Source: an uncultured Clostridia bacterium
Lineage (GTDB): Bacteria; Bacillota; Clostridia; Peptostreptococcales; Anaerovoracaceae
Assembly: GCA_934233735.1 (NCBI GenBank)
Contig: CAKQGQ010000005.1
Coordinates: 24,778 to 88,777 of the forward strand
Direction: 5' to 3'
Length of the DNA stretch: 64,000 nt
In this document: piece after piece, positions 37,637-56,113 of the stretch
How positions within the stretch are numbered: position 1 is the stretch's first letter
Layout of the letters: each line of letters begins with the position of its first letter
Notes under the pieces: model-generated
Told to the model about the DNA's origin: nothing
What the model saw: the letters and a program-made list of their open reading frames with translations, nothing else
Database searches by the model: none
Made by a program: the position numbers and the translations under genes

Positions 37637-38174
37637 GCAAAAAGGAAAAGGCAGCTATCTGAAAACCAATGCAGAGATTTTTCCGATTCGCAGCTACGAT
37701 GAGCAAATGTCTTGTTTTGTTCTTGCAAACGGCACTTATCTTGATATTGTTGAAAAAACTCCGGAGGATGTCGGTAACATGCTTCCGGATGAAATTGAGT
37801 ATAAGATGATTCTTTTCGCAAAATTCCTGAAGCTGTACAAGGATGATATAAAGCTTGTCTTTATGAATTTTCCAACGAATACAACAGGGCAGCAAAACCA
37901 TCTAAAACGCAGGCTGGAAAAAACAAGCGACCCGGTGCGACGGAAGTGGCTTGAGCGAAAAATATCGGAGCTTGAGAGAGCAGACAAGGGAACTCACCTA
38001 AAGGAATCGTATTTCTTTATTTTCAGTAAAACCATAGAATCCCACCAAAAACATATGAGGGAGATTTCTATTATGGAAGGCGGGCTTGTACCGATGAGTT
38101 TTCAGAAAAAGTGTCAAATCCTATTTAAAATGGCAAACTCAAATTCAATTATAATCAGGGAGGACGAAGCATGA
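37590..38174 (+). CDS. T4SS-associated protein translationally coupled to VirB4 (possible detached N-terminal module)
   Basis: ORF of 194 aa; a GTG at 37611 after GAGAGGA is a plausible alternative start. Its stop overlaps the VirB4 ATG (ATGA). Confidence 0.55.
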   Translation: MRERKTEVWKKQKKNEQKGKGSYLKTNAEIFPIRSYDEQMSCFVLANGTYLDIVEKTPEDVGNMLPDEIEYKMILFAKFLKLYKDDIKLVFMNFPTNTTGQQNHLKRRLEKTSDPVRRKWLERKISELERADKGTHLKESYFFIFSKTIESHQKHMREISIMEGGLVPMSFQKKCQILFKMANSNSIIIREDEA

Positions 38175-40099: not shown

Positions 40100-41173
40100 A
40101 TGAAAAAGATACTAATCTTTTTCCTGATACCGACACTTGTGATTTTAATGATCATCCTTACGGCCGTCGCTTCCGTGTATCAGATGCTTGCGACCGGAGG
40201 TAATGGAAAAGCAGATATGGAAACTGTCATGCGCCTTCCGCTGCCGCTTTCGTATGAGATTGTGGATGCTGCTATGACCTGTGAGCGAAACTACGGTGTG
40301 AAGGCTTCCGTGATTCTGGCCGTCTTATATGAGAGAGGACGCGGGCTTGAAGAAGGAGGCAAGGGCGTACTTGCAGCGGAAATCAACAATTATTTTCAAA
40401 TGAAGGGAACCGGAACGAAAGGCAGCAAGCGCTATTCGAATTACACGGAAGTTTATGAAATCGAAACGGATGATGAAGGAAATGTCATTTCGGAAAAAAC
40501 AAGAATCCTAAACGGACGATACCGAAAATACCGAAATTATGCGGAAAGCATGGACGATTTTTGCAAGCTGATTACCAAAAAAAAATATAAAAAACACACC
40601 CAAAAAGCAACGGACAGCGTTTCCTATATCAAGGCAATGCGAAAAGGCGGCTATTTTTTTAGCGATGAAGAAATGGAAAACTGCATTGCGACTGTTTTGG
40701 AATATGACCTTGCATCATTTGACGCGGGCGGTTATCAAGATGGAGACGGAATCGCAACCGGAGATTATTTATGGCCAACGGTTACAAACAGCGTGATTAC
40801 ATCCTATTTTGGGCAGAGAAATACCGGGATTGCAGGCGCGTCCACTTACCATCAGGGAATTGACATTGGCGTGTATGGAAACGCATCCGGCGCGCCGATT
40901 TATGCAGTAGACGGCGGAACCGTAACCTTTGCAGGCTATCTAAATGATGCAGCCGGATATGCGATTTATATCGACCATGGCAGCGGAGTGAAAACCAGCT
41001 ATATGCATCTTCGATCCGATGGCGTATTGGTTCGCAAAGGACAAAGCGTTACGCGCGGACAACACATCGGAAAAATGGGTTCCACCGGAGTTTCGTCCGG
41101 AACGCATCTTGATTTCCGTATCTATATCAATGGAAAAGCGCAAGACCCATTAAGATATTTACATAGGGAGTAA
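40100..41173 (+). CDS. Membrane-anchored cell-wall hydrolase with C-terminal M23/LytM peptidase domain
   Basis: N-terminal TM helix. M23 motifs YHQGIDIG, YIDHGSGVKTSYMHL and GSTGVSSGTHLDFRIY. Confidence 0.85.
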   Translation: MKKILIFFLIPTLVILMIILTAVASVYQMLATGGNGKADMETVMRLPLPLSYEIVDAAMTCERNYGVKASVILAVLYERGRGLEEGGKGVLAAEINNYFQMKGTGTKGSKRYSNYTEVYEIETDDEGNVISEKTRILNGRYRKYRNYAESMDDFCKLITKKKYKKHTQKATDSVSYIKAMRKGGYFFSDEEMENCIATVLEYDLASFDAGGYQDGDGIATGDYLWPTVTNSVITSYFGQRNTGIAGASTYHQGIDIGVYGNASGAPIYAVDGGTVTFAGYLNDAAGYAIYIDHGSGVKTSYMHLRSDGVLVRKGQSVTRGQHIGKMGSTGVSSGTHLDFRIYINGKAQDPLRYLHRE

Positions 41174-43783: not shown

Positions 43784-45391
43784 ATGTCACTTTGGAACAC
43801 AAAGGAACTGATGGCAATCGTTACAAGCAGCAATCTTTTAAATAGTGCTTTGCAGGCTCTTTACGGCGGTGAGGAAAATAGTCAAAATGGGATAAAGTAC
43901 AGCATATTTTATATTCCCAAAGCGGCGTTTACGGACGGAACTCTGCGTGAGCAGAGAGGCTTTCGGAATCTAAAAAGCGAAGCGTATCTATTTGAAAAGA
44001 TTGTTTTGGCTTTCGAGCCCAGTGAAGATGGGGAAGCAGAAAAAGCCATTTTCGTAAAAAACTTCGGAGAGGCAGATTATGAGGAGCTGGATACAAAGAA
44101 CAACGAACTCTGCAAAACGATTTTCAAGAAGCCACAAGAAGCAGCGATTACTCTTTCCGCTATGCGAAAACAAGCAGAAGAAGAAATCAATCGAGAAGTC
44201 AATCGGAAGCTTCAAAGCAGAGGTCAGAATATAAATTATAACTATCGCACATTTCCGCTGCTGATGGAAATCTATCAAAGGCAGAAAGCCGCAGGGACTG
44301 CAGAAGCGTACCAAACAGAATATGTCATCCATGCACAAAATAAAGAGGATAGGCAAAAGCGCATCACGCTGCATAGCTTAGATGAAAAAATCCTTACAGC
44401 CGAAGGCAAGGAAATCACGATTACGAAGGCTGACAAGCAGAAAAGAATCTTGATGCCGCCTAAATTTTATAACACCCTTGATTTTTTGCAGGATGCCGAG
44501 GAAAAAGGAATTTCTTATCACCAAGTAGTGACAATGCTTGAAATGCTATATCGAAGTGGTCTGATACCTTACTATCTGACAGATGGATGTGAAATTACTC
44601 CAGGCTTAAAAGATTCTGTCATGGACATTGCTGCAATTGCATTTCCGACAAATGATTTTTTTCAGTATTTGCACGGCTTAACGAAAAATCTATCACTTCC
44701 GGAAGGATGTTTTGCCGAAAAAAAAGAAGCAAATGGTCTTTGTCTAAGGCATTCAGAAAAGGCTTCTTTCTTTTCGATTTATGACTGTGCAGAAGATAAG
44801 GACAAAGAATTGCTGGAACTCTTAATTTGCAGACAATTTGCAGTATACCTACCGGAAGCTAATACCGAAAGACTTACCTATGAAGCAGAATGCGAAAGCA
44901 TTAGGCTTATCGGAACGAAGGACATTCTTATAAGCCCCGGCTGGAAGAAAGCATACGGAGAAAGTGAAGAAATTCCTTTTGAGATATTTCAGGATATGAA
45001 ATTTGAGATTGTAAAGATTGAGCAGATGCCGGCTGCAAAGTGCGAACTTGCTAGTTTTTCGAGCTTGTGTAAATCTTTAAAACTCTTTTGCTGCGGTGAC
45101 ACTTATGAGATTTTACGCATTTTCGATGCACTTTTTAACCGGGCGCAGTCCCCTTGGCTGATTACGGAATCCGGCTACTTTTTAATAAATGGAGAAGGAA
45201 AAAGCTTTTTTGATAATTTTCCGGTAAAACCGGAGGCTTTTTCCTTTTCTATTATGACATTCCTGTGGCAGCTTGCAGATGATGCAGCATCCGGAAAAAT
45301 TTCGGAGAACAATTTCCAAAAGCAGCTAAAAGAAAAGGCAAGTCAGCTATCAGAAGAACTTGAGAATATTTTTAGTAGGCAGCAAGGATAA
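43784..45391 (+). CDS. Topoisomerase IA-like protein with degenerate catalytic motifs (tentative)
   Basis: LEMLYRSGLIPYYLTDG resembles the type IA active-site box (LYE.GLITYxRTD), with Tyr kept and Arg replaced. N-terminal LMAIVTSS and AFEPSEDGE resemble a TOPRIM domain with its acidic residues altered. Confidence 0.4.
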   Translation: MSLWNTKELMAIVTSSNLLNSALQALYGGEENSQNGIKYSIFYIPKAAFTDGTLREQRGFRNLKSEAYLFEKIVLAFEPSEDGEAEKAIFVKNFGEADYEELDTKNNELCKTIFKKPQEAAITLSAMRKQAEEEINREVNRKLQSRGQNINYNYRTFPLLMEIYQRQKAAGTAEAYQTEYVIHAQNKEDRQKRITLHSLDEKILTAEGKEITITKADKQKRILMPPKFYNTLDFLQDAEEKGISYHQVVTMLEMLYRSGLIPYYLTDGCEITPGLKDSVMDIAAIAFPTNDFFQYLHGLTKNLSLPEGCFAEKKEANGLCLRHSEKASFFSIYDCAEDKDKELLELLICRQFAVYLPEANTERLTYEAECESIRLIGTKDILISPGWKKAYGESEEIPFEIFQDMKFEIVKIEQMPAAKCELASFSSLCKSLKLFCCGDTYEILRIFDALFNRAQSPWLITESGYFLINGEGKSFFDNFPVKPEAFSFSIMTFLWQLADDAASGKISENNFQKQLKEKASQLSEELENIFSRQQG

Positions 45392-45426
45392 GGAGGCAGA
45401 AAGCAAGAGCATTCTGCGTTTTCTTA

Positions 45427-45712
45427 TTTCTCAAATCCATTTCCGAGAGATTTGAGAAATGGCAGCAGAGGGGATTTCACAGTGCCGATTGTACCAATCA
45501 GCCGCAAGAAATCCCTTTTTGATTTTCCTTGTTCACTTGGTGGTTCATTTTAAACGATTCGAAGCTACAGACAAGGTGCGAGCCGTTGTAAAAATAAATA
45601 TTTTTCTCCACGGGCAGGTCTGCCACCTTGTCTTTCGCTTCTCATCGGCCGCCTGCGGCTTTTCTTTCACCACTATCAAGTGAACAACAAAAATTCATGT
45701 TCACGAGATAGG
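45427..45712. promoter_or_regulatory. Structured repeat element, copy 1 (candidate single-strand promoter / structured leader)
   Basis: 5' hairpin TTTCTCAAATC/GATTTGAGAAA, then a long imperfect hairpin (stems at 45531-45543/45670-45685, 45556-45565/45637-45646 and 45570-45578/45624-45632). About 93% identical to copy 2. Confidence 0.6.
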
Positions 45713-45725
45713 AAGGGATAAGAAA

Positions 45726-46544
45726 ATGAAAAAAGAAACTTACGAAGCATTCAAAGAAATGCTGAAACAAGAACTGAAGTCGCAAGGAATGGATTTCGAA
45801 GTGAAAAAAGTATTTAAAGTCAATCAGGAGCTGGATGGAATCGGCTTTGGAAATCCGAAAGAAGGTGTGCAATCCGTCTTTTATCTGCAAAATCTTTTTC
45901 AAGACTACCAGGCAGGGCAAAGCCTTACAGAGATTGCAGAAATGATAAAAGAAAATGCGGTAAAGCGTACTGTATTTAAAGGTAGCAAGCTTGCTGAACT
46001 CCTTAAAGGAAGCGGATGGCGGCAAAAACTGATTGCAGAGGTTATCAACACAAAAGTCAACGAAGAATTGCTCTTAGAGCTTCCATATCGAAGCCTCTTC
46101 GACTTATCGGTCATTTACCGAATTGAATTTTCCAATGGGAGTATTATCGTGGACGACGCTCTGATGGAAACACTCAACACGAGCGAGCCGGAGCTTTACA
46201 AATTGGCAAAGGAAAATATATCCGAACGCTATCCGCTTTTCACCTTACAGATTTTTGAAACATTTTACGCAGTTTCTAATAAAGAGTATCTGTACGGAGC
46301 AAACGCATTCCTATTTGAAGAGAAGTTTGAAAAAATGGCTGAATGCGCTCACGATGATATCTATATCATTCCGTCATCCATCCACGAACTTCTTTTTGTC
46401 AGAGCAAGCCTCTTTACCGAGGAAGAATTGCTCGAAATAGTCAGAGATGCAAATAGAGTAGCGGTAAGTACAGAAGAATTCTTGTCAAATAACATCTATC
46501 ATTACAGTAGAAAAACAAAGAAGCTGAAAATGATTACACGCTGA
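45726..46544 (+). CDS. Conserved mobile-element protein (IIPSSIHELLFV motif; DUF5688-like by resemblance)
   Basis: 272-aa ORF with GGAAGGGA RBS. It is the first gene after structured element copy 1. Confidence 0.65.
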   Translation: MKKETYEAFKEMLKQELKSQGMDFEVKKVFKVNQELDGIGFGNPKEGVQSVFYLQNLFQDYQAGQSLTEIAEMIKENAVKRTVFKGSKLAELLKGSGWRQKLIAEVINTKVNEELLLELPYRSLFDLSVIYRIEFSNGSIIVDDALMETLNTSEPELYKLAKENISERYPLFTLQIFETFYAVSNKEYLYGANAFLFEEKFEKMAECAHDDIYIIPSSIHELLFVRASLFTEEELLEIVRDANRVAVSTEEFLSNNIYHYSRKTKKLKMITR

Positions 46545-46596
46545 AACGAAAAAGGCACGATGAGCCGGACTTAAACGGTAGAAAGTGAGGGAACTT

Positions 46597-46839
46597 ATGA
46601 CATTATCAAAATTCTTTGATTTATTGAATCAAGACTGTGAGGTGCATTTTGTCGCAAATCGCATTGAAAACGGACGCCCGGTTGATATGAGATTTACTTA
46701 CAAGAAACCTGATGATATTGATATCGCCCCCGAAGATAACGATTCGCTATCTTCGGTACACAGGTTCTTAGACTGGAAAGTAGCCGGTCTTCATCCGGAA
46801 GACGACGGAAGTATCTTCGTTGGTGTTGGTCAATGGTAA
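46597..46839 (+). CDS. Small acidic hypothetical protein
   Basis: ATG at 46597 after GTGAGGGA; the track ORF starts at GTG 46585. Confidence 0.5.
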   Translation: MTLSKFFDLLNQDCEVHFVANRIENGRPVDMRFTYKKPDDIDIAPEDNDSLSSVHRFLDWKVAGLHPEDDGSIFVGVGQW

Positions 46840-47019
46840 TTTGCCTGCACTATGACAGGCTCAAACGGTAGAAAGGTACGACGCGGAGATGCGAAAGCAT
46901 CTCCGTGAAAGTTTCCTTGCCGCAGAGAAAAAGACTCTGCGGCAAGGAAAAAATCGGAAGACAGCTGCCGCTCCGGTCGATAGATTCCATCAACCGAAGC
47001 TGGCGCTCTCGATGATTTG

Positions 47020-47304
47020 AATTTCTCAAATCCATTTACGAGAGATTTGAGAAATGTCAATGGTGGGATTTTTCCGGCTACTTGTACCAATCAACCGCAA
47101 GAAATCTCTTTTTGATTTTCCTTGTTCACTTGGTGGCTCATTTTAAACGATTCGACGCTACAGACAAGGTGCGAGCCGTTGTAAAAATAAATATTTTTCT
47201 CCACGGGCAGGTCTGCCACCTTGTCTTTCGCGTCTCATCGGCCGCCTGCGGCTTTCTTTCACCACTATCAAGTGAACAACAAAAATTCGTGCTCACGAGA
47301 TAGA
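47020..47304. promoter_or_regulatory. Structured repeat element, copy 2
   Basis: Direct repeat of 45427-45712 at an offset of 1593 nt. It has a 1-nt T-run deletion and a compensatory pair (47156 C / 47232 G). Confidence 0.6.
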
Positions 47305-47317
47305 AAGGAAAGCAAAG

Positions 47318-47494
47318 ATGTTTACAAGAGAAGAATTTAAAAGAACAGCTTGGAAGATGTCCTACGAGGAATATGCAGCTTGCTGCTGTCAGGAATGCGA
47401 AAAGAAAAAAGACTGCATACACTATGGTGCATACCGCAGGGTGCCGGAGATTGATGGGGGTTTGGGGCTGTGTCCGAATTTGAAAAACGATTAA
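47318..47494 (+). CDS. 58-aa cysteine-rich protein (Cys-rich VLP-like)
   Basis: Translates as MFTREEFKRTAWKMSYEEYAACCCQECEKKKDCIHYGAYRRVPEIDGGLGLCPNLKND. RBS AAAGGAAAG. It is below the track size cut-off. Confidence 0.6.
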   Translation: MFTREEFKRTAWKMSYEEYAACCCQECEKKKDCIHYGAYRRVPEIDGGLGLCPNLKND

Positions 47495-47512: not shown

Positions 47513-47878
47513 ATGAAAATCACGGTTTATGGCTATCAAGATAAGTTTAGCGGAAAAATTACAAAATACAACCTTCAGCTTATAAAAAGCTTTGATGGTG
47601 GGAACGCGTTAAAAATGGAAGTGGAAATACCCGATTATCTAAAACCGGAGTGGACAGAATACGGTGATATTTTAATCAACGACAAAGGCAGCACCTATCT
47701 TATCTTGCTTGACAAGCTGCTTCGCGTTCACGGCAAGAACTATACACCTGTAATTTTACTGCCAAATACCGATATGATGACAAGAGGAAATGGATACCTT
47801 GCTCTTAAGGTATATAGTGAAGAATGGGTTAGCTGTGCCTTTTCTATTGAAGAATATTTAGGCAATAAGGACAATTAA
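47513..47878 (+). CDS. Hypothetical protein
   Basis: 121-aa ORF with AGGAGGTAAG RBS. Confidence 0.6.
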   Translation: MKITVYGYQDKFSGKITKYNLQLIKSFDGGNALKMEVEIPDYLKPEWTEYGDILINDKGSTYLILLDKLLRVHGKNYTPVILLPNTDMMTRGNGYLALKVYSEEWVSCAFSIEEYLGNKDN

Positions 47879-48685: not shown

Positions 48686-48823
48686 CAAGTATGTTTGAAA
48701 TAAGCTATAATGTTTAAGTGGTGTAGAGAATATAATTAAAAAATGAAAAATTTTTGTAACATTTTCATTCTTTTTGACTCTAATATATGAAGCCCGAATA
48801 ATTCAGATGAAGGGAGATCACAT

Positions 48824-49315
48824 ATGGAGGAATTTGAATATCTTTGTCACCAGTATAAAGACATTATATATCGATATCTTCTATCACTTTGTCACGATGA
48901 ACATTTGTCCGAGGAACTGACGGCAGAAACATTTTATCGTGCTTTCCTGCATATTGACCGCTTTCGAGGAGAATGTAATGTTGCAACTTGGATGTGTCAA
49001 ATCGCTAAGAACATATATTACAAAGAACAGAAGAGAAGAAAGAAGCATGATTCCTTAGAAGATGTTTTAGAAATAAAAGATCCCGAGCACTTTCTGGACA
49101 AGCTGTGTGAAAAAGAACAGGTAGCAGAGATTGTCCGAGCGGTACAGAACTTAAATGAGCCGTATAAGGAAGTATTTACCTTAAGAGTTTTAGGAAATTT
49201 AAGCTTCAAGGAAATTGCAATGATATTTTCGAAGACGGATTCATGGGCAAGAGTTACCTATTATCGGGCAAAAGAAAAATTGATATATAAATTGGAGGGC
49301 GAAAATGAAAATTAG
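48824..49315 (+). CDS. ECF-type sigma-70 family factor
   Basis: Region 2 (YRYLLSLCHDEHLSEELTAETFYRAF...WMCQIAKN) and region 4 (YKEVFTLRVLGNLSFKEIAMIFSKTDSWARVTYYRAKEKL). Confidence 0.8.
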   Translation: MEEFEYLCHQYKDIIYRYLLSLCHDEHLSEELTAETFYRAFLHIDRFRGECNVATWMCQIAKNIYYKEQKRRKKHDSLEDVLEIKDPEHFLDKLCEKEQVAEIVRAVQNLNEPYKEVFTLRVLGNLSFKEIAMIFSKTDSWARVTYYRAKEKLIYKLEGENEN

Positions 49316-50009
49316 TTGTAATGTGGTAGAGGATTTACTACCTTTATATGTCGATAATTGCTGTTCGGATGATAGTAGGATGCTCCTTGAGGAGCATTTG
49401 GTCGAGTGTCAAGCCTGCCGAGAAAAATATGAACGCATGAAAAGAAGTGATTATATCTCAAAATCAGCAGAAGCAGGTACAGAGCAAACGTTTCACATCG
49501 CCGCTTATGCTAAAAAGATACGTCGCCACAGAATCACTTTCCGTATTCTAACACCTATTGCGATTCTTCTGCTGACCTTGCTTCTGTCAGTAACATGGCA
49601 GGCAGTTAAGCTTATGGACTATCCAAATACCGAGTTGAATGCTACGATAGAAGCCGGAACTTGGAATTTGACGACCGGAGATCTCGAAACAGATGTCTGT
49701 GAAATCGATAGATACCGGTTGTATAGCGAATCATCTCGACTATACGTCTGTGTGCAGGCAGAATCTGAGTTGACAGGAAAAGTTGTGCTGTACAAAATAG
49801 AAAGCAAAGGAGAACAGAATGCAGATAACTCGATTATGGAAGCAGATATTGACGATAGCAAAAAATGGTGTGTCTTTACGCATTTGTCCACAGAAAATCA
49901 ATATTGTATCCGCGTGGAAGGTATTCAAAAAGGTACGATTACGGTCAGTGAAAAGATTCCTTTTACACAAGCCCTGCGCATAGCATGGAATGATTTCTTT
50001 TTCATCTGA
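49305..50009 (+). CDS. Anti-sigma factor with zf-HC2 motif and one TM helix
   Basis: LEEHLVECQACREKY (H-x3-C-x2-C), overlap with the sigma gene, and a central TM segment. Confidence 0.75.
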   Translation: MKISCNVVEDLLPLYVDNCCSDDSRMLLEEHLVECQACREKYERMKRSDYISKSAEAGTEQTFHIAAYAKKIRRHRITFRILTPIAILLLTLLLSVTWQAVKLMDYPNTELNATIEAGTWNLTTGDLETDVCEIDRYRLYSESSRLYVCVQAESELTGKVVLYKIESKGEQNADNSIMEADIDDSKKWCVFTHLSTENQYCIRVEGIQKGTITVSEKIPFTQALRIAWNDFFFI

Positions 50010-50295: not shown

Positions 50296-50826
50296 ATGTT
50301 AAGATTGATTGTGTGTACACTTGCACTTGCCTGTGTTTTCCCTATGTCAGCTTTTGCAGCTGAACCGGCACAAGGGGTAAAAGAAAATAGTGTTGCTCCC
50401 GTTGGTGTACTCGTTGAAACCGTAGCGGAAGATTTAATTTCATCTTACAATTACAGCAATATGCCAACACTTGCAAAGCGTACTACAGTTGATTTATCAG
50501 AGGGCCCAAGTCATTTTACGGTTGGAGCATTGGATGCAAATAAGTCGTATACAACAGATACATATAAAATTACGAAAACCACTCTTAAGATTGGTCTTCA
50601 GAGTATCGCGCGACCATCAAGCCACATCAAAGTAGTCCTTTACAAAAAAAATGGCACCAGTGTTGCAGAAACGACAATTTCTTTACCACAAGTGAATCCA
50701 ATAGGTGGCTCTACTACTTATATTTCATTCACAAATCTTAGCACAGCAAATAATTATTACGCAAAAATCAAAAATATTGATACTGCAACAAGCGGAAGTA
50801 TCTTTGCTATTGCAAAGCAGGCATAG
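50296..50826 (+). CDS. Secreted protein of unknown function
   Basis: Signal peptide MLRLIVCTLALACVFPMSAFAAE. AGGGAGGAAG RBS. Confidence 0.65.
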   Translation: MLRLIVCTLALACVFPMSAFAAEPAQGVKENSVAPVGVLVETVAEDLISSYNYSNMPTLAKRTTVDLSEGPSHFTVGALDANKSYTTDTYKITKTTLKIGLQSIARPSSHIKVVLYKKNGTSVAETTISLPQVNPIGGSTTYISFTNLSTANNYYAKIKNIDTATSGSIFAIAKQA

Positions 50827-50927
50827 AGCGGTCTTTCGCAATAACATAATAAATATTGACTAAATTGGGCTTGGAATAATGCAAGATGTCTTTAGCCGAT
50901 TATCAATATTAAACATCTGCAAAAAAG

Positions 50928-50960
50928 AAAACCTCGGAGCATCGTTTCCGAGGTTTTTTG
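50928..50960 (+). terminator. Intrinsic terminator
   Basis: ACCTCGGA / TCCGAGGT stem followed by T6. Confidence 0.75.
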
Positions 50961-50987
50961 CGATAAGATTTTTTAGGGAGGTAGACA

Positions 50988-51410
50988 GTGTTTTTAACAG
51001 AGCAAGACTTAAGAGATACCTTTTGGACAAATTATAACTACAATAATCGGGCAATCAAATATCAATTTGAATGCCCACTGCGGCAAGGCAACATTGACCT
51101 TGTGACAGTCGAAAAATTCCAAGAGAACTATCAGATTAACGCTTTTGAGTTTAAATTGGATGATATAAAAAAGGTACTGCTCCAGGCAAAGGGCAATATC
51201 CCTTATTGCAACAAATCCTGGATTGTCGTTCCGGGGGAAAAAAAGAAAGTAATCCTGGAGCGATACAGAAATTATCTTGATGACGCCAAACACATTGGGG
51301 TTATTGCTGTAGAAGAGGGTGGCAAGTGGGAAATGATATACAGGCCGTTGTTTAAACGCGAACTTGTTTTTGAACAGCCGCTCTTAAATTTTTTAATGAG
51401 GGGACTGTAA
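50988..51410 (+). CDS. PD-(D/E)xK nuclease-fold protein (tentative)
   Basis: GTG start after AGGGAGG. GNIDLV ... AFEFKL gives a D...ExK arrangement. 140 aa. Confidence 0.55.
   Translation: MFLTEQDLRDTFWTNYNYNNRAIKYQFECPLRQGNIDLVTVEKFQENYQINAFEFKLDDIKKVLLQAKGNIPYCNKSWIVVPGEKKKVILERYRNYLDDAKHIGVIAVEEGGKWEMIYRPLFKRELVFEQPLLNFLMRGL
50989..51092 (+). repeat. Direct repeat, right copy
   Basis: See 48576-48679. Confidence 0.9.
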
Positions 51411-51922
51411 TGAAAAAAATTATAACATGGCTGAAAGATGACAAAAAAAGAATTGCCGGGCTCATTTTGATAGTGCTGGCAGCGTTAATCGTTATTTTTC
51501 TGATACGAAGTATTGTACTTGGAAATGAAATGGCGGAGGATGAGCCTAAGACGGAGAATAATCTCACAGAGACAGAACGCAATCTTCTCATCGAAGACCT
51601 TAACCTAAACGGAAACGATGCAGAAGATGTGAATCCGGACATAGCGAAAAAAATCATGAATCTTGAGGTTGTCATTTCCGATGAAATTGTAAAAGACTGC
51701 TTACCGGAGCAGGAAGAAAAACTCACAAGAGAAATGGAAAACTTTCTTGTTGAAAATGATTTTTACATGGATGTGACAAAAGCAAGCTGCACACAGGAAG
51801 TTACAAAGAATTATCTTACGAAAGAAATCTATATGGAATTTAAGTTAAACGATCCGGCGCGGACGATTGTGTCCGTCGAGTTTCGTCAGGGAAGCAGTCG
51901 TTTTTCCTTTAACTTCTACTAA
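51410..51922 (+). CDS. Membrane-anchored hypothetical protein
   Basis: ATG overlaps the upstream stop. N-terminal TM helix IAGLILIVLAALIVIFLI. Confidence 0.55.
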   Translation: MKKIITWLKDDKKRIAGLILIVLAALIVIFLIRSIVLGNEMAEDEPKTENNLTETERNLLIEDLNLNGNDAEDVNPDIAKKIMNLEVVISDEIVKDCLPEQEEKLTREMENFLVENDFYMDVTKASCTQEVTKNYLTKEIYMEFKLNDPARTIVSVEFRQGSSRFSFNFY

Positions 51923-51959
51923 CGAAGACGGAAAAACACCGGGAAAAGGAAAGAAAGCC

Positions 51960-52200
51960 GTCCGAAATTCGTCCTCTTTCTTTCGTCCTATGCATGGCAA
52001 ATCTGTTTCCAGTAATTCTATGCCATGCGGGTTTTGGAAGAGCATAAGGGAAATCTGTCACACATGCTGTGTGAAATCGGCAGTGCCGATTGATTTCCTG
52101 CGCTTTCTTTCTTTGCTTTTTGTGTAACAACAAAATATCGGTTTGCCAGCATAAAGCCATACAAATCGTCCTGAAATTCGTCCTTTTTTCGTCCTTGCCG
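51960..52200. other. Candidate oriT region (iterated TCGTCCT repeats and three inverted repeats)
   Basis: TCGTCCT occurs five times (ending at 51975, 51989, 52172, 52184 and 52195). Inverted repeats are GCATGGCA/TGCCATGC (51992-51999 / 52021-52028), TCACACA-tgc-TGTGTGA (52058-52074) and CGGCA-g-TGCCG (52078-52088). The region is the non-coding gap immediately upstream of the RHH/relaxase operon. Confidence 0.45.
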
Positions 52201-52251
52201 TCAAAAAGCCATACGAAAAATGGAAAAACATATGAAAGGAAATGCGAAGAT

Positions 52252-52647
52252 ATGAGTAAAAAAACATTTCGTCTGTCAGAAGAAGCAGTGGCATGTATCA
52301 AAAAAATCCAAGAAGATAATCATCTGAGGACAGAAACAGCAGCGGTCGAATTTGTCCTGAAAGACTATTGCAAAGGGCAAGCATTTGAAAGTCTCCTTGA
52401 AAAAATCCTAGAAGAAAAATTGGGTAGTGAAATCAAAGCCTTAATAAAAATGAGCCGGGCGGAGGAAGAGAAAATAGACCTGCTCCTTGACGGCATGAAT
52501 TCCCAACTGATTCATTTTGCCGTCGGCCGCTTGGAGGCTTATGACAAGAATCCAGCGCCAATTTTGATCCAGGCAAGGAAACATCGTGAAGATAAAATCA
52601 CAGAATTACAAATACGAAAAAATTATGAACAGACAAAGGGGAAATAA
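52252..52647 (+). CDS. Ribbon-helix-helix-like relaxosome accessory protein (tentative)
   Basis: ATG at 52252. N-terminus MSKKTFRLSEEAVACIKKIQ is RHH-like. It is the first gene of the relaxase operon; the track ORF start at 52090 is too long. Confidence 0.5.
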   Translation: MSKKTFRLSEEAVACIKKIQEDNHLRTETAAVEFVLKDYCKGQAFESLLEKILEEKLGSEIKALIKMSRAEEEKIDLLLDGMNSQLIHFAVGRLEAYDKNPAPILIQARKHREDKITELQIRKNYEQTKGK

Positions 52648-52650
52648 AAA

Positions 52651-52947
52651 ATGAAGTCATTATATATCCGAGGAATGGATGAAACTCTATACCTAACACT
52701 TTCAGAACAAGCGGAAAAGATGGAATTGAGTTTGCCGGAGCTTGCGCGAAGAGTACTTGCGAATTATGCAGCGGCTCCTGCGCTTGTCGCAATTGACCAT
52801 AAGTATCGTGTTTTCGTGGATGAAGTGCAGGAAGTCTTGGCACTTGATTTTGCTAATTTGAAAAACTTAACAGAAGAACTTGCGCTTATGCTGCAAACAT
52901 CACAGGAGATGATGCAGGAGCTGATGGAGGAAACACATGGCAAGTAA
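52651..52947 (+). CDS. MobC/RHH-like relaxosome accessory protein
   Basis: MKSLYIRGMDETLYLTLSEQAEKMELSLPELARRVL is a beta-strand/helix/helix CopG-like pattern. It overlaps the relaxase start. Confidence 0.55.
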   Translation: MKSLYIRGMDETLYLTLSEQAEKMELSLPELARRVLANYAAAPALVAIDHKYRVFVDEVQEVLALDFANLKNLTEELALMLQTSQEMMQELMEETHGK

Positions 52948-54403
52948 TGTAGGGATCACACTTATGAACACGTTTTGCCGCCCTGCCTCAAAGTTTTTTG
53001 CAAATTATATCAACTATATGGATCGAGAAGAAGCGGTGAAGAAAGAACATTTATCGGATTTTGACCTATTTGCCGCTGAAAACTTTGACCTTTTCTCCGG
53101 ATATATGGACTATATGGGAAACCCTGAAAAAGCACATGCCCAGGATAAGCCTGAGAAGATTTCAGGACTTTTTACCGCAAATCGGGATAACTTATCAAAA
53201 GAAGAAATAAAATCGCTGAAATCGGCATTTAGGACGGCGCAGGCAAAAGGAAGTCTTATGTGGCAGACCGTTTTAAGCTTTGATAATGACTGGTTAAAAG
53301 AAATGGGCATCTACAAAGATACAGGGCTTGATGAAAAAAGATTTCAAACATGTGCAAGAGCAGCCATCGGAAAAATGCTGGAAAGCGAAAACCTAAAAAA
53401 TGCGATTTGGACAGCTGCCGTTCATTATAATACAGATAACATTCATATCCATGTGGGCATTGTAGAGCCGGAGCCGATGCGGAAAAAGAAGAAGTTTAAA
53501 CAATGGGAGATTATACAAAAAGATGGTAAGTGGCAGTATAAAAGACAAAAGAATCCAACTACCGGGAAGATGGAAAAGGTTCCTGTCGTCGATGCAAGCG
53601 GAAGGCAGCTGGAGAGCGAAGAATATATCGGAAAATTTAAGCTGCAAAGTTTGAAAAATGCGAAGGCAGAGATGATGAGCTTTTTACAAATGGATAAGGC
53701 TTCCCACAGCGAAATCAACAAAGTCAATCAAAGAATCCGGGAAAATATCGTAGGAAGTCTGAAAGCATATGCACTTTATGAAGATGAAGATTTTCGGACG
53801 CTTTACGAAGCCATCTATGAGAAACTTCCCTCTGACAAACGCACATGGAAGTACGGCTATCAGAAAATGAATCCGCTGCGAACGGAAATTGACGCACTTT
53901 CCGAGGCTTACATCAAAAAATATTGCACGGATGAATTTGAAATGTTTTCTGTAAATCTAAGAAAAAAAGAAGAAGAATATCAAAAGGCATATGGCGGGGA
54001 GACAAACCATTATGCAGAAAAGCAAATAAAAGAGTTATATCATCGCATGGGAAATGCAATTTTGTTTTCTATGCGTATGTACGATAAAAAGCTGCAGCTT
54101 GAAACGGATGGAGAATATGAAAGCTATGCTTCTGCAGAAATGTCGGCCGGGCAGAAACGAAAGGAAAAAACATACAGCACGAAAGCAAAGAAAATAACCG
54201 AGCCTTCCTACAGACCGGCAAGAAGAAAGAGAACCGGAAAAGATTCTATCAGAAGTATCCTTGCAGCCCTAAAGCACAGCCTGGATAATACAACCGAAAA
54301 AATATTAAATCAGCAAGAATATGAAAGACTTCAGCGTGAAATCGGAGGAGGAGAAATTGAATACGAAAGAATGCAAGGAGACTGGTATCATCACCTGTCT
54401 TAA
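52937..54403 (+). CDS. Relaxase/mobilization nuclease (MobA/VirD2-type, HxDxxxHxH-like histidine triad)
   Basis: AAVHYNTDNIHIHVGIVEP is a relaxase metal-binding motif. N-terminal Tyr candidates lie in FANYINYMDRE. 488 aa. Confidence 0.75.
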   Translation: MASNVGITLMNTFCRPASKFFANYINYMDREEAVKKEHLSDFDLFAAENFDLFSGYMDYMGNPEKAHAQDKPEKISGLFTANRDNLSKEEIKSLKSAFRTAQAKGSLMWQTVLSFDNDWLKEMGIYKDTGLDEKRFQTCARAAIGKMLESENLKNAIWTAAVHYNTDNIHIHVGIVEPEPMRKKKKFKQWEIIQKDGKWQYKRQKNPTTGKMEKVPVVDASGRQLESEEYIGKFKLQSLKNAKAEMMSFLQMDKASHSEINKVNQRIRENIVGSLKAYALYEDEDFRTLYEAIYEKLPSDKRTWKYGYQKMNPLRTEIDALSEAYIKKYCTDEFEMFSVNLRKKEEEYQKAYGGETNHYAEKQIKELYHRMGNAILFSMRMYDKKLQLETDGEYESYASAEMSAGQKRKEKTYSTKAKKITEPSYRPARRKRTGKDSIRSILAALKHSLDNTTEKILNQQEYERLQREIGGGEIEYERMQGDWYHHLS

Positions 54404-54529: not shown

Positions 54530-55730
54530 TTGCTTTGCATAGGTGTCTGCAAGTATAATAAAGAAAAAAAGGCGGGCTGGCTTATGAGAAAAAGAAAAGA
54601 CAAGTATAAACATTTATCACTCGAGAAGAGGTACACGATTGAACGTATGCTCAAAGGCGGTTTTCGCGCTGCAGAGATTGCAGTAGCGATTGGCTGCTGC
54701 GTCGCGACCGTTTATAACGAAAAGAAACGATTTACCTATAAGCATACAAAAGATTACCGAGATGTGACGATGTATGCTCCCGAAACGGCGTATAACAGAT
54801 ACCGTCAAAGCTTAAAGTTGAAAGGGAAAAAACCAGTTCTATTGGAAGATGTAAATCAAAGGAACGCAATCGAAAAGCTGATCCTGGAAAAGAACTATTC
54901 TCCGGCAGTAGCACTGAAATATCTCAAAAGGAAGAGGAAAGATAAAGAATACGACTTCAAATATCCGATTGTTTCGGTCAATACCGTATACAAAGGAATT
55001 GAGAAAGGGTATTTTGAAAATCTCATTTTGGAGAAATTGCCGGACGGTGGCAGGCATAAAAAGCAAGAAAAGCGGAAAGTTCAGCAAGCAAAGAAAGGAG
55101 CAAAAGGAACTTCGATTGAAATGCGCCCGGAAGAGATTGACAAAAGAGAAGAATTCGGTCACTGGGAAATGGATACGGTTCACGGAAAACAAACGAATCG
55201 AAAATGCCTTTTGGTGCTGACTGAGCGAGTAAGCAGAAACGAGATTATCGAGCCGCTGAAAGCAAATACTACGATAGAAGTTGTACGCGCACTCAATCGA
55301 CTTGAGAAAATCTATGGCAGCACATTCTATAAGCTGTTCAAATCAATAACCGTAGATAACGGCACCGAGTTTTCGAATTACGAAGGAATGGAGAAGGCCT
55401 TGTACCGTGTCGGAAAACGTACAAAGATCTACTATTGTCATGCGTACTGCTCATATGAACGCGGCAGCAATGAAGTGAATAACAAACTGATTCGACGACG
55501 ATTCCCGAAAGGAGCGGATTTTGATAAAATTGTAAATAAGAAGGATGTGAAAAGGACGCAAGCATGGATGAATGATATGCCCCGGAAACTCCTTGGATGG
55601 CAAACAGCCAGCGAGATTTTCCGGGAATGCATGGAAGCAAATGCGCTTCTCTGATAGAGAAAACTCTAAATTCTGTTAGAATATTTGTTATTATAAGATT
55701 GTCTTTTTTTAAAAATGGGTTATGCATATA
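54530..55730 (+). mobile_element. IS30-family insertion sequence (ends not resolved)
   Basis: It contains an intact IS30-type transposase gene. I could not identify convincing terminal inverted repeats by eye, so the boundaries are approximate. Confidence 0.5.
54584..55654 (+). CDS. IS30-family DDE transposase
   Basis: N-terminal HTH (LSLEKRYTIERMLKGGFRAAEIAVAIGCCVATVYNE). DDE region HWEMDTV ... ITVDNGTEF ... SYERGSNEVNNKLIRRRFPKG. Confidence 0.88.
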   Translation: MRKRKDKYKHLSLEKRYTIERMLKGGFRAAEIAVAIGCCVATVYNEKKRFTYKHTKDYRDVTMYAPETAYNRYRQSLKLKGKKPVLLEDVNQRNAIEKLILEKNYSPAVALKYLKRKRKDKEYDFKYPIVSVNTVYKGIEKGYFENLILEKLPDGGRHKKQEKRKVQQAKKGAKGTSIEMRPEEIDKREEFGHWEMDTVHGKQTNRKCLLVLTERVSRNEIIEPLKANTTIEVVRALNRLEKIYGSTFYKLFKSITVDNGTEFSNYEGMEKALYRVGKRTKIYYCHAYCSYERGSNEVNNKLIRRRFPKGADFDKIVNKKDVKRTQAWMNDMPRKLLGWQTASEIFRECMEANALL

Positions 55731-56036: not shown

Positions 56037-56113
56037 GCGCCATTAGCTCAATTGGATAGAGTCGCGCACTACGAATGCGAAGGTTAGGGGTTCGAGTCCC
56101 TTATGGCGCACCA
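56037..56113 (+). tRNA. tRNA-Arg (anticodon ACG), CCA encoded
   Basis: Cloverleaf folded by hand: acceptor GCGCCAT/ATGGCGC, D stem GCTC/GAGT, anticodon stem-loop GCGCA-CTACGAA-TGCGA, T arm AGGGG-TTCGAGT-CCCTT, then ACCA. Confidence 0.9.

Follow-up and report, generated by a model that had tools for sequence, protein, structure and literature searches.

Through single-strand promoters, the genes for anti-defence and establishment on enterobacterial plasmids come to be expressed within minutes of entry into a recipient. The F plasmid carries two of these: Frpo1 and Frpo2 share 92% identity at a distance of 5 kb, and the leading genes depend on both to be expressed early (PMC9849209). In the cited literature, promoters on single-stranded DNA (ssDNA) have been demonstrated only in Gram-negative systems (PMC6294495, PMC8708921, PMC11541004), and a large survey of leading regions left out the MOBP2 elements and had no Frpo-like sequence in its Gram-positive example (PMC11541004). 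How the EGeRS1 repeats of the Bacillus plasmid pLS20 work is still an open question (PMC8708921). The subject here is a 64,000-nt stretch of DNA (hereafter the window) from an uncultured Clostridia bacterium of the Anaerovoracaceae (contig CAKQGQ010000005.1), in which a conjugative element carries two direct copies of a structured, non-coding block of ~300 nt, each directly ahead of a string of plus-strand genes. On sequence analysis, this element is best read as an Frpo-like single-strand promoter from a new, sequence-unrelated family, and the two blocks would probably switch on the first-arriving genes before the DNA becomes double-stranded.

The repeated element, its fold and its homologues

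The whole units, at 45420-45725 and 47013-47317, are 88% identical across 308 aligned columns, and the minus strand, i.e., the predicted transferred strand, is proposed to be the functional one in both. An earlier note on this DNA had described a twofold direct block 1593 nt apart, and a repeat search of the window recovers it: 45489-45662 matches 47082-47255 over 174 nt at 97% identity and a spacing of 1593, followed by 45661-45716 against 47253-47308 (56 nt, 95%), where the spacing falls to 1592 because of a 1-nt indel in a T-run at 45660. The first ~50 nt of the unit (45426-45477 against 47021-47072) are 85% identical. For the part at 45519-45712 about six differences had been counted, and six substitutions were found there besides the T-run indel. 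The copies end about 10-20 nt ahead of the ribosome-binding site (RBS) and start codon of the genes at 45726 and 47318, in keeping with the ~15 nt to the RBS given before, and their G+C content is that of their surroundings (0.42 against 0.41-0.43). That they are non-coding also holds, in that the short open reading frames (ORFs) overlapping them keep no conserved frame. No Rfam family matched. At the gathering threshold, the sole Rfam match in the whole window is a tRNA at 56037, with none on either copy; a permissive E-value mode on 45300-47400 returned just chance microRNA-like matches (E>0.2), and 20 related loci gave no match. Likewise, copy 1 had no blastn match among phages, and none at E<=0.01 (word size 11) among the 72,556 plasmids of PLSDB, in which F-like and IncI plasmids are presumed to be present.

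When folded with DNA and RNA parameters against shuffled controls, as the earlier note had suggested, the copies fold far better than the shuffles and best as minus-strand ssDNA, with -61.8 kcal/mol (z -8.7) for copy 1 and -60.8 kcal/mol (z -7.0) for copy 2. The corresponding values for copy 1 are -55.3 kcal/mol (z -5.5) as plus-strand ssDNA and -99.2 kcal/mol (z -4.7) as plus-strand RNA. The three stems drawn previously, A, B and C, are all present. Stem A pairs GTTCACTTGGTGG (45531-45543) with the 3' arm CCAC-TAT-CAAGTGAAC (45670-45685), in which the TAT at 45674-45676 bulges out between the paired segments 45670-45673 and 45677-45685; the CTA of this arm is invariant in alignment A3, and on the minus strand the stem forms the duplex downstream of the loop that holds the -10 box. 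Stem C, CGAT..GAAGC (45555-45565) with 45637-45647, shows compensatory changes and makes the spacer between the -35 and -10 boxes duplex. Above it sits an apical three-way-junction core (45569-45633 in copy 1 and 47162-47226 in copy 2; 75.6 bits in each with the core-only covariance model R2), which has covariation in its helices 3-5 and consists of stem B (45570-45578 with 45624-45632), stem D (CCGT/ACGG), an AT-rich apical hairpin and a side hairpin GGCAGGTCTGCC. The unpaired nucleotides at the apex of the junction (GCRAGCSGTTGT, CTCCACSG) are strongly conserved or invariant. The full-length covariance model R1 matches 45523-45705 with 201.6 bits and 47116-47297 with 194.3 bits. Beyond stem A, in what is predicted to be the 5' untranslated region, a small plus-strand hairpin GTGAACA..TGTTCAC (45681-45704) competes with that stem for the GTGAAC segment, and all lineages keep its GAACA-loop-TGTTC; a T to C change within it between the copies (45700 against 47292) makes an A-C mismatch on the plus strand and a G-T wobble on the minus strand. 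At the other end of the unit, two accessory hairpins (45426-45515; the first at 45426-45466, the second at 45471-45515) are conserved among close relatives only.

Homologues of the element occur in at least seven lineages of conjugative elements with a MobL relaxase, from Oscillospiraceae, Mogibacterium, Ileibacterium and gut metagenomes. In close relatives from gut metagenomes (L001-L009) the block stands at the same two places. A search of other Firmicutes elements with a covariance model had been proposed, and an alignment of the MobL relaxase was used to obtain 80 loci from named genomes, which were searched with nhmmer and R1. Diverged copies emerged in an Oscillospiraceae metagenome-assembled genome (MAG; L011, two copies), in Mogibacterium timidum ATCC 33093 (L019), in a Mogibacterium MAG (L046) and in an Ileibacterium MAG (L021), and R2 added no new members at these 80 loci beyond a reduced copy (L016). 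A degenerate pattern made from the most conserved apical part led to 71 metagenome loci, within which about 30 matches are full-length family members and about 55 carry the apical core only; this core is common to 59 unique sequences from metagenomes and genomes. The same core pattern had 0 matches in viral contigs, and a stem-anchored exact pattern had 0 in representative genomes.

The structure is real, and it is DNA-like in its pairing. For nine divergent copies, RNAalifold finds compensatory changes in 14-15 pairs, and across 70 distinct sequences 98% of the cells are paired, with double-sided changes in 17 of the 30 pairs. Not one of 500 column shuffles reaches any of the five observed measures, and slid controls drop to 32-51% pairing. 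The search pattern had fixed some columns of the core, but it left free stem A, the side hairpin and those positions of stem B that vary; stem A (helices 1-2) has compensatory changes in 9 of its 13 pairs. The one pair in stem C that the earlier note had singled out as compensatory (45563/45639) fails, the close relatives showing A/T, C/G, A/G and C/T there (alignment A1), but the covariation expected of the hairpin in distant homologues is found in many compensatory changes elsewhere in the structure. Wobbles are nearly absent (6 G-T and 14 A-C cells of 1484), and the few that exist lean to the minus strand, because each A-C of the plus strand corresponds to a G-T of the minus strand. The minimum-free-energy folds lean the same way (15 against 6), and ssDNA of the minus strand is more stable than that of the plus strand in each of 24 distinct members.

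Promoter-like boxes, predicted transfer polarity and terminator-like signals

The single-strand promoter reading was first built on a minus-strand TTGTCT-16-TAAAAT, and a promoter scan finds this to be the only promoter-like site in or just upstream of either copy; no plus-strand duplex promoter is conserved in the element or upstream of it. In copy 1, the -35-like TTGTCT (45569-45574, minus strand), whose TTG is conserved in the homologues, is paired in stem B with an unpaired probability of 0.01, and the -10-like TAAAAT (45547-45552), 16 nt after it, lies in the internal loop with an unpaired probability of 0.79. The promoter scan and the pairing probabilities place the same minus-strand boxes of copy 2 at 47162-47167 and 47140-47145. 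The proposed geometry, with -35 and spacer paired and the -10 in an internal loop of the folded minus strand, recurs in 24/24 distinct full-length members on which it was scored: TTGnnn (TAGCTG in L019) is base-paired in all (unpaired probability 0-0.35), a spacer of 15-17 nt is largely duplex through stem C, and TA(A/T)AAT (TAGAAT in L008, a perfect TATAAT in L011, L108 and L160) is mostly unpaired (mean unpaired probability 0.48-0.91). A duplex of 10-14 bp, stem A, follows the -10 loop in 23 of the 24, with none for L155 in that fold. Conservation of the hexamers in homologues had been named as a point on which the idea could fall, and TTG is kept in the homologues and TA(A/T)AAT in all lineages of the integrative and conjugative element (ICE) type. 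In these predicted folds, the upstream duplex, the unpaired -10 and the downstream duplex together have the shape of an open promoter complex. The boxes are also biased in strand, a TAnnnT standing 12-17 nt after TTG in 48/59 minus-strand tails of the unique core-carrying sequences, as against 4/59 plus-strand tails and 4.5/59 shuffled ones; the plus strand too reads TTGAC after the core and so provides an internal control for the count.

In duplex form, TTGnnn-15/17-TAnAAT would be an acceptable sigma-A promoter in its own right, firing leftward on the minus strand and producing antisense or interfering RNA against the upstream operon (the topoisomerase and type IV secretion genes), and the reduced relative in L016, with TTGACA and an extended -10 (TGATATAAT), could be a normal promoter. 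Yet the leftward transcript would hold only one arm of the hairpin, which leaves the covariation in stems A, B and C without an explanation. Neither a conserved product nor a conserved terminator lies to the left, where the flanks differ between lineages, and it would have to be coincidence that the -10 consistently falls in a loop and the -35 in a stem. An ordinary leftward promoter is extremely improbable.

All genes of the surrounding region, a conjugative element, are on the plus strand. Its relaxase gene (52937-54403, plus strand) is of the MobL type (MOB_L or 'MobP2'; Pfam PF18555, E 4.4e-75), and a candidate origin of transfer (oriT), a 167-bp intergenic region at 51923-52089 with the three inverted repeats GAAAGAAAG/CTTTCTTTC, GCATGGCA/TGCCATGC and AATCGGCA/TGCCGATT, lies upstream of it at a distance of 857 bp and two small plus-strand genes (52090-52947). 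No similarity to the nick region of pLS20 was seen in 51923-52089. On pLS20 itself, the nick strand has been mapped experimentally for RelLS20, a MobL homologue, and oriT precedes the relaxase gene by 865 bp and two genes (PMC5313138). The layout in the window equals that of pLS20, and the minus strand is therefore the one predicted to be transferred, entering from ~52 kb towards lower coordinates and offering itself as template for the genes between 51.9 and 45.7 kb; this polarity agrees with the nick strand mapped for the pLS20 relaxase. Both copies in the window are 4.6-6.5 kb from the candidate oriT, on the side predicted to enter first, with their genes pointing towards oriT, and at loci with a MobL relaxase the copies sit on the coding strand of the relaxase (the reduced copy in L016 excepted). 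The first gene after copy 1 encodes a DUF5688 protein of 272 aa (45726-46544, plus strand; Pfam PF18941, E 1.5e-53). Copy 2 is followed by a small ORF of 58 aa (47318-47494, plus strand), which has counterparts of 60-62 aa at the same place in L001 and L007, and then by 47513-47878 and more plus-strand genes. For most lineages, the start of a co-oriented, RBS-preceded ORF comes 20-40 nt after the element. Among these first genes, Pfam recognises DUF5688 in three lineages (the window, L011 and L160) and a primase-like protein with DUF3991 and Toprim, and those without a Pfam match are a protein of 97-99 aa (OB-fold or single-strand-binding protein (SSB)-like by eye only) and small ORFs; to judge from such annotation, the downstream genes would suit early functions in the recipient.

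The mechanism proposed for these features begins with the minus strand entering the recipient 5' end first, from the oriT just upstream of the relaxase operon. The element on this strand would fold into its long imperfect hairpin, in which stems B and C would rebuild a duplex -35 (TTGTCT) and the 16-nt spacer, the internal loop would keep the -10 (TAAAAT) unpaired, and stem A would provide the downstream duplex, lending the whole the look of a promoter already opened. Host sigma-A RNA polymerase would then bind and start near 45674-45677 (47266-47269 in copy 2), where, going by the spacing from the -10, the CTA/TAT bulge (45674-45676; 47266-47268 in copy 2) would be the template side at the start of transcription. 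Copying the minus strand towards that strand's 5' end, the polymerase would yield plus-sense mRNA with a leader of ~50 nt, i.e., a DUF5688 mRNA from copy 1 and the mRNA of the small-ORF string from copy 2. Once the complementary strand is made, the hairpin could no longer form and the promoter would vanish; in the resulting duplex DNA, the plus-strand transcript would contain a long hairpin and a U-run, a terminator shielding the genes from upstream transcription. Short transcripts from the element could, in addition, prime complementary-strand synthesis, as for the F Frpo. A reading in which both copies act as single-strand promoters carried by the transferred strand, and also terminate in duplex form, is thus favoured, if by a modest measure, and the promoter part of it, as the earlier note had framed it, is supported by all available computational tests. 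A covariation-supported element with a precise predicted start makes early expression in conjugative elements of Bacillota directly testable, and Mogibacterium timidum ATCC 33093 (L019) is a cultured carrier.

The earlier note lacked both the conserved T-run of the plus strand, with its probable terminator function, and the conserved apex of the three-way junction, for which a plain promoter offers no explanation. The run, of 6-8 T, comes right after the 3' arm of stem C and is conserved in all ICE-type lineages. In both copies a sequence scan calls an intrinsic terminator, i.e., a stable plus-strand hairpin with a U-run directly after it: a small G+C hairpin GGCCGCCTGCGGC with its T-run spans 45647-45667 in copy 1 (call at 45647-45660) and 47240-47259 in copy 2 (call at 47240-47253). 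On the minus strand, this same segment is the A-rich template side of the -10 loop. The arrangement suggests that, in duplex DNA, the element would also terminate transcription. Taken to its limit, such evidence would make the block a plus-strand RNA element only, either a long-stem terminator or insulator, possibly antitermination-resistant, or some other cis-acting leader, with the minus-strand boxes being incidental. Precedents from pLS20 lend this some force: EGeRS1-B, the positional analogue of the element, is without a duplex promoter and, solely in its native orientation, stops read-through (PMC8708921), and long stems render terminators resistant to conAn antitermination (PMC10325885). 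However, a terminator alone is insufficient, because stem A, with its compensatory changes, lies after the T-run and because the minus-strand boxes, with the conserved TA(A/T)AAT of the loop and the bias of 48/59 against 4/59, stay unexplained. G-U pairs, which are common in functional RNAs, are nearly absent, and on the plus strand A-C cells exceed them. Moreover, the downstream genes would be left with no promoter. A role confined to plus-strand RNA is therefore unlikely, and termination is compatible with the single-strand promoter as its second function.

Another possibility shares with the single-strand promoter an identical recognition logic, namely a folded -35 and -10: the block might be a single-strand origin (sso, or single-strand initiation site, ssi), in which the folded strand recruits RNA polymerase for primer RNA only and the genes are driven otherwise. 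The sso elements of Gram-positive rolling-circle plasmids and sso1 of ICEBs1 are structured, function in a single orientation only and are located on the strand that is transferred (PMC4595007), and the F Frpo also primes DNA synthesis, to go by the title under which PMC6294495 cites Masai and Arai 1997. A priming site, though, need not abut an RBS, and in most lineages the element stops just short of a co-oriented start, at downstream genes that differ and with two or more copies per element. There is also no similarity to sso of the pTA1060/ICEBs1 type. Priming and promoter functions are not exclusive; that the element serves for priming and nothing else appears improbable.

Relatives of the core and the neighbouring genes

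Several observations weigh against the single-strand promoter reading. In Mogibacterium, at least one copy is situated 7 kb downstream of the relaxase, and hence not all copies are in a leading position. The asymmetry of the wobbles is small (14 against 6). A simple promoter has no need of conserved unpaired nucleotides at the apex, which suggests an additional specific ligand. For EGeRS1, an ssDNA promoter was judged unlikely by the authors of the work on the pLS20 family (PMC8708921), although in pLS20 the genes are oriented the opposite way. Furthermore, the core is found in chromosomal intergenic DNA (class R) and next to transposase genes of insertion sequences (IS; class T), and the minus-strand boxes of these two classes, TTGAC(G/A)-N12-13-TAnnnT, have a spacing that is non-canonical for a duplex promoter. 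The reduced core of L016 (8332-8382, minus strand; a Merdimonas MAG) stands 1.6 kb upstream of a MobL relaxase in the opposite orientation, its complementary strand reading TTGACA-N12-TGATATAAT, with an extended -10, towards the relaxase. Because relatives occur outside conjugative elements, confidence in the tie of the core to conjugative transfer is lowered; the argument from geometry for the ICE-type copies is left unaffected by the class R, class T and L016 relatives.

In class R, from rumen-type metagenomes (L116, L118, L133, L098, L138, L124 and others; alignment A7), a conserved ~280-nt block with multiple hairpins ends in the core; the block is chromosomal and intergenic and stands 850-900 nt upstream of glycoside hydrolase genes in the same orientation. 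Its consensus fold favours the strand complementary to the one on which the core is read (-46.5 against -36.7 kcal/mol), with ~9% G-U there. The block has no Rfam match, and a class R element had no blastn match among plasmids and phages; signal recognition particle RNA, 6S, tmRNA, RNase P and riboswitches had been considered by eye and were excluded by Rfam. The upstream flank of the class R core in L132/L144, L098, L133 and L096/L115 holds transposase genes of IS21 (istB), IS110 and IS256 that end 134-178 nt before it, and similarity to intact IS copies breaks at slightly different points within the class R 5' hairpin, which these IS abut or interrupt; by sequence this hairpin looks like a hot spot of IS insertion. 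In class T, from termite gut (L117, L131, L154, L099, L127, L157 and L159), the core comes 70-76 nt after an IS3-family orfB, with a conserved hairpin GGGCGTTTGCCGCA..TGCGTCAAACGCCC before it and a conserved block TCACTGAAACT..TTGACAATATCA after it, the latter resembling an IS3-type end with an outward -35.

The box of class R reads TAYCCT, or TA(T/C)CCTG in its longer form, and recalls the nick consensus of MOBP relaxases, taken here to be YATCCTG. Invariant unpaired nucleotides such as those of the apex are typical of specific protein contacts, and the succession element-ORF-element-ORF with mosaic gene content brings cassette arrays to mind (PMC5737381). On these grounds, the block could be a protein site on folded ssDNA that is no promoter at all, bound by a relaxase or HUH nuclease, a primase, or a recombinase as at attC-like cassette boundaries. 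In the ICE-type copies, however, the loop conserves TA(A/T)AAT only, which is the degeneracy of a -10 and not that of a nick site; two or more direct nick sites would fragment the transferred DNA; and the likely oriT is elsewhere. A non-promoter protein site is accordingly very improbable. Integron attC sites in particular were considered and thought unlikely, the Pfam annotation of the window holding no integron-type integrase nearby and the loop showing the conservation pattern of a -10 box.

Returning to the single-strand promoter, a broader proposal can be advanced from the sequence comparisons, tentatively and with somewhat less than even confidence: the element may represent a widespread new family of folded-ssDNA promoters for the zygotic, first-entering genes of MobL elements in gut and oral Bacillota, combining a mimic of the open complex with a three-way-junction cap that recruits a host or transferred factor and with a terminator active when duplex, and its apical module may have been reused in chromosomal and IS-adjacent elements as a general device for ssDNA recognition. 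The element would also mark which genes of resistance-spreading gut elements are expressed early (DUF5688, primase-like, SSB-like and small ORFs).

The remaining genes that the window's conjugative element carries include those for a VirB4-like ATPase (at 38171), a cell-wall hydrolase (at 40100) and, upstream of copy 1, a topoisomerase (43784-45391), all on the plus strand. Between an 84-aa ORF and copy 2 lies a near-perfect 17-bp inverted repeat (46896-46965; TTTCCTTGCCGCAGAGA...TCTCTGCGGCAAGGAAA), with no T-run after it on either strand and only chance-level Rfam matches. The predicted leading region also contains a plus-strand cassette for an extracytoplasmic function (ECF) sigma factor (Sigma70_r2 and r4_2) and a zf-HC2 anti-sigma factor (48824-50009), with a plus-strand promoter-like site of its own, TTGACT-17-AATAAT, at 48774-48802; L001 and L007 are without this cassette. 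The pair was considered as the cognate factor of the element and dropped, as relatives carry the element without it. Further small plus-strand ORFs extend from 50296 to 51922. Directly after the relaxase comes an IS30-like DDE gene (HTH_38 and rve; 54530-55654, plus strand), as also in L001, L003, L007, L008 and L019, and the tRNA at 56037-56110 stands 380 nt beyond it; the two may be the DDE-type integrase of the element and its insertion site at the element's end. In L019 (5755-12054, Mogibacterium timidum ATCC 33093), a replisome-organiser-like gene, parA and parB stand ahead of the element, and after it come a small ORF and the gene for a relaxase of the Mob_Pre type, all of this downstream of the MobL relaxase and DDE gene, an arrangement that may reflect a second mobile module or a circularly permuted element.

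Comparison with described systems

The 6S RNA and artificial bubble or fork-junction promoter templates imitate the open complex and bind holoenzyme of the sigma-70 type, and the predicted folds share with them an upstream duplex, an unpaired -10 region and a downstream duplex. In contrast, 6S is an RNA that acts as a decoy of RNA polymerase, and no Rfam match to 6S was obtained for the element. A parallel might also be struck with TerR of pLS20, which likewise pairs a long hairpin with a U-run at the end of a block of conjugation genes in a MOB_L element (PMC10325885). TerR is a simple 15-bp stem lacking a conserved internal loop or apex, whereas the element described here is about five times larger and has the minus-strand boxes as well.

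The sso of the ssoA/ssoU types are recognised by host RNA polymerase through promoter-like features of their fold. Like sso of the ssoA, ssoT and ssoU types and sso1 of ICEBs1, which are structured, orientation-specific ssDNA on conjugatively transferred strands (PMC4595007), the element is structured and oriented; unlike it, sso do not stand where genes start, and they give rise to a short primer instead of an mRNA. Homology to ssoT and ICEBs1 sso1 was rejected, R1 with filters off giving on pTA1060 and pTA1040 a best score of 14 bits (E 0.36), off the sso coordinates. By eye, and with no ssoA reference compared, no TAGCGT (the CS-6 of the ssoA type) is present in the terminal loops of the window copies.

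The EGeRS1 blocks of the pLS20 family, MOB_L plasmids of Bacillus, come from elements with the same relaxase family and are, like the copies described here, repeated, strongly structured blocks with no duplex promoter, directly upstream of the RBS of several operons with mosaic downstream genes (PMC8708921). EGeRS1 blocks read-through in its native orientation, and the present element is terminator-like by sequence. The two differ in size and composition, EGeRS1 being 420-750 bp and G+C-rich (51% against 38%) and the element ~300 bp at the local G+C level, and in polarity, the transferred strand of pLS20 being the non-template for the EGeRS1 genes and that of the present element the predicted template. 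Homology to EGeRS1 was considered and rejected, with no R1 or R2 match on the complete NC_015148, a negative regular-expression search and a shared 9-mer at chance level. EGeRS1-A (L164:10060-10200, i.e., pLS20 ~44,060-44,200) and EGeRS1-B contain CACAAGGGGTTACGAGCCGTT(G/A)A...CCCTTGTGTG on the strand complementary to the transferred one, so that the complement of this motif is on the transferred strand, as in the window. The motif is faintly reminiscent of the core (CAAGG..GAGCCGTTG) and, with respect to the transferred strand, oriented like it; the 9-mer in common is at chance level, and there was no covariance-model match.

Finally, Frpo and ssi of F and ColIb-P9 belong to MOBF and IncI plasmids, and they differ from the present element in host phylum (here Bacillota), in relaxase (here MOB_L/MobP2) and in sequence, with no similarity by blastn against the 72,556 plasmids; function is here a matter of prediction. 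Structurally, the -10 of the element is in a conserved internal loop and not in a stem, the apex is a conserved three-way junction, and the plus-strand T-run suggests a built-in terminator. These differences aside, both are non-coding blocks of a few hundred nucleotides on the transferred strand (a predicted one here), and in both an imperfect ssDNA hairpin rebuilds -35 and -10 boxes at promoter spacing, as it does in the predicted folds of 24/24 members of the new family. Both are oriented such that the incoming strand, which is here predicted, is the template of the genes that follow, and both occur as two near-identical direct copies next to establishment-type genes, within a predicted leading region in the present case. 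Thus, on every feature that sequence analysis can test, the element would appear to work like Frpo and ssi.

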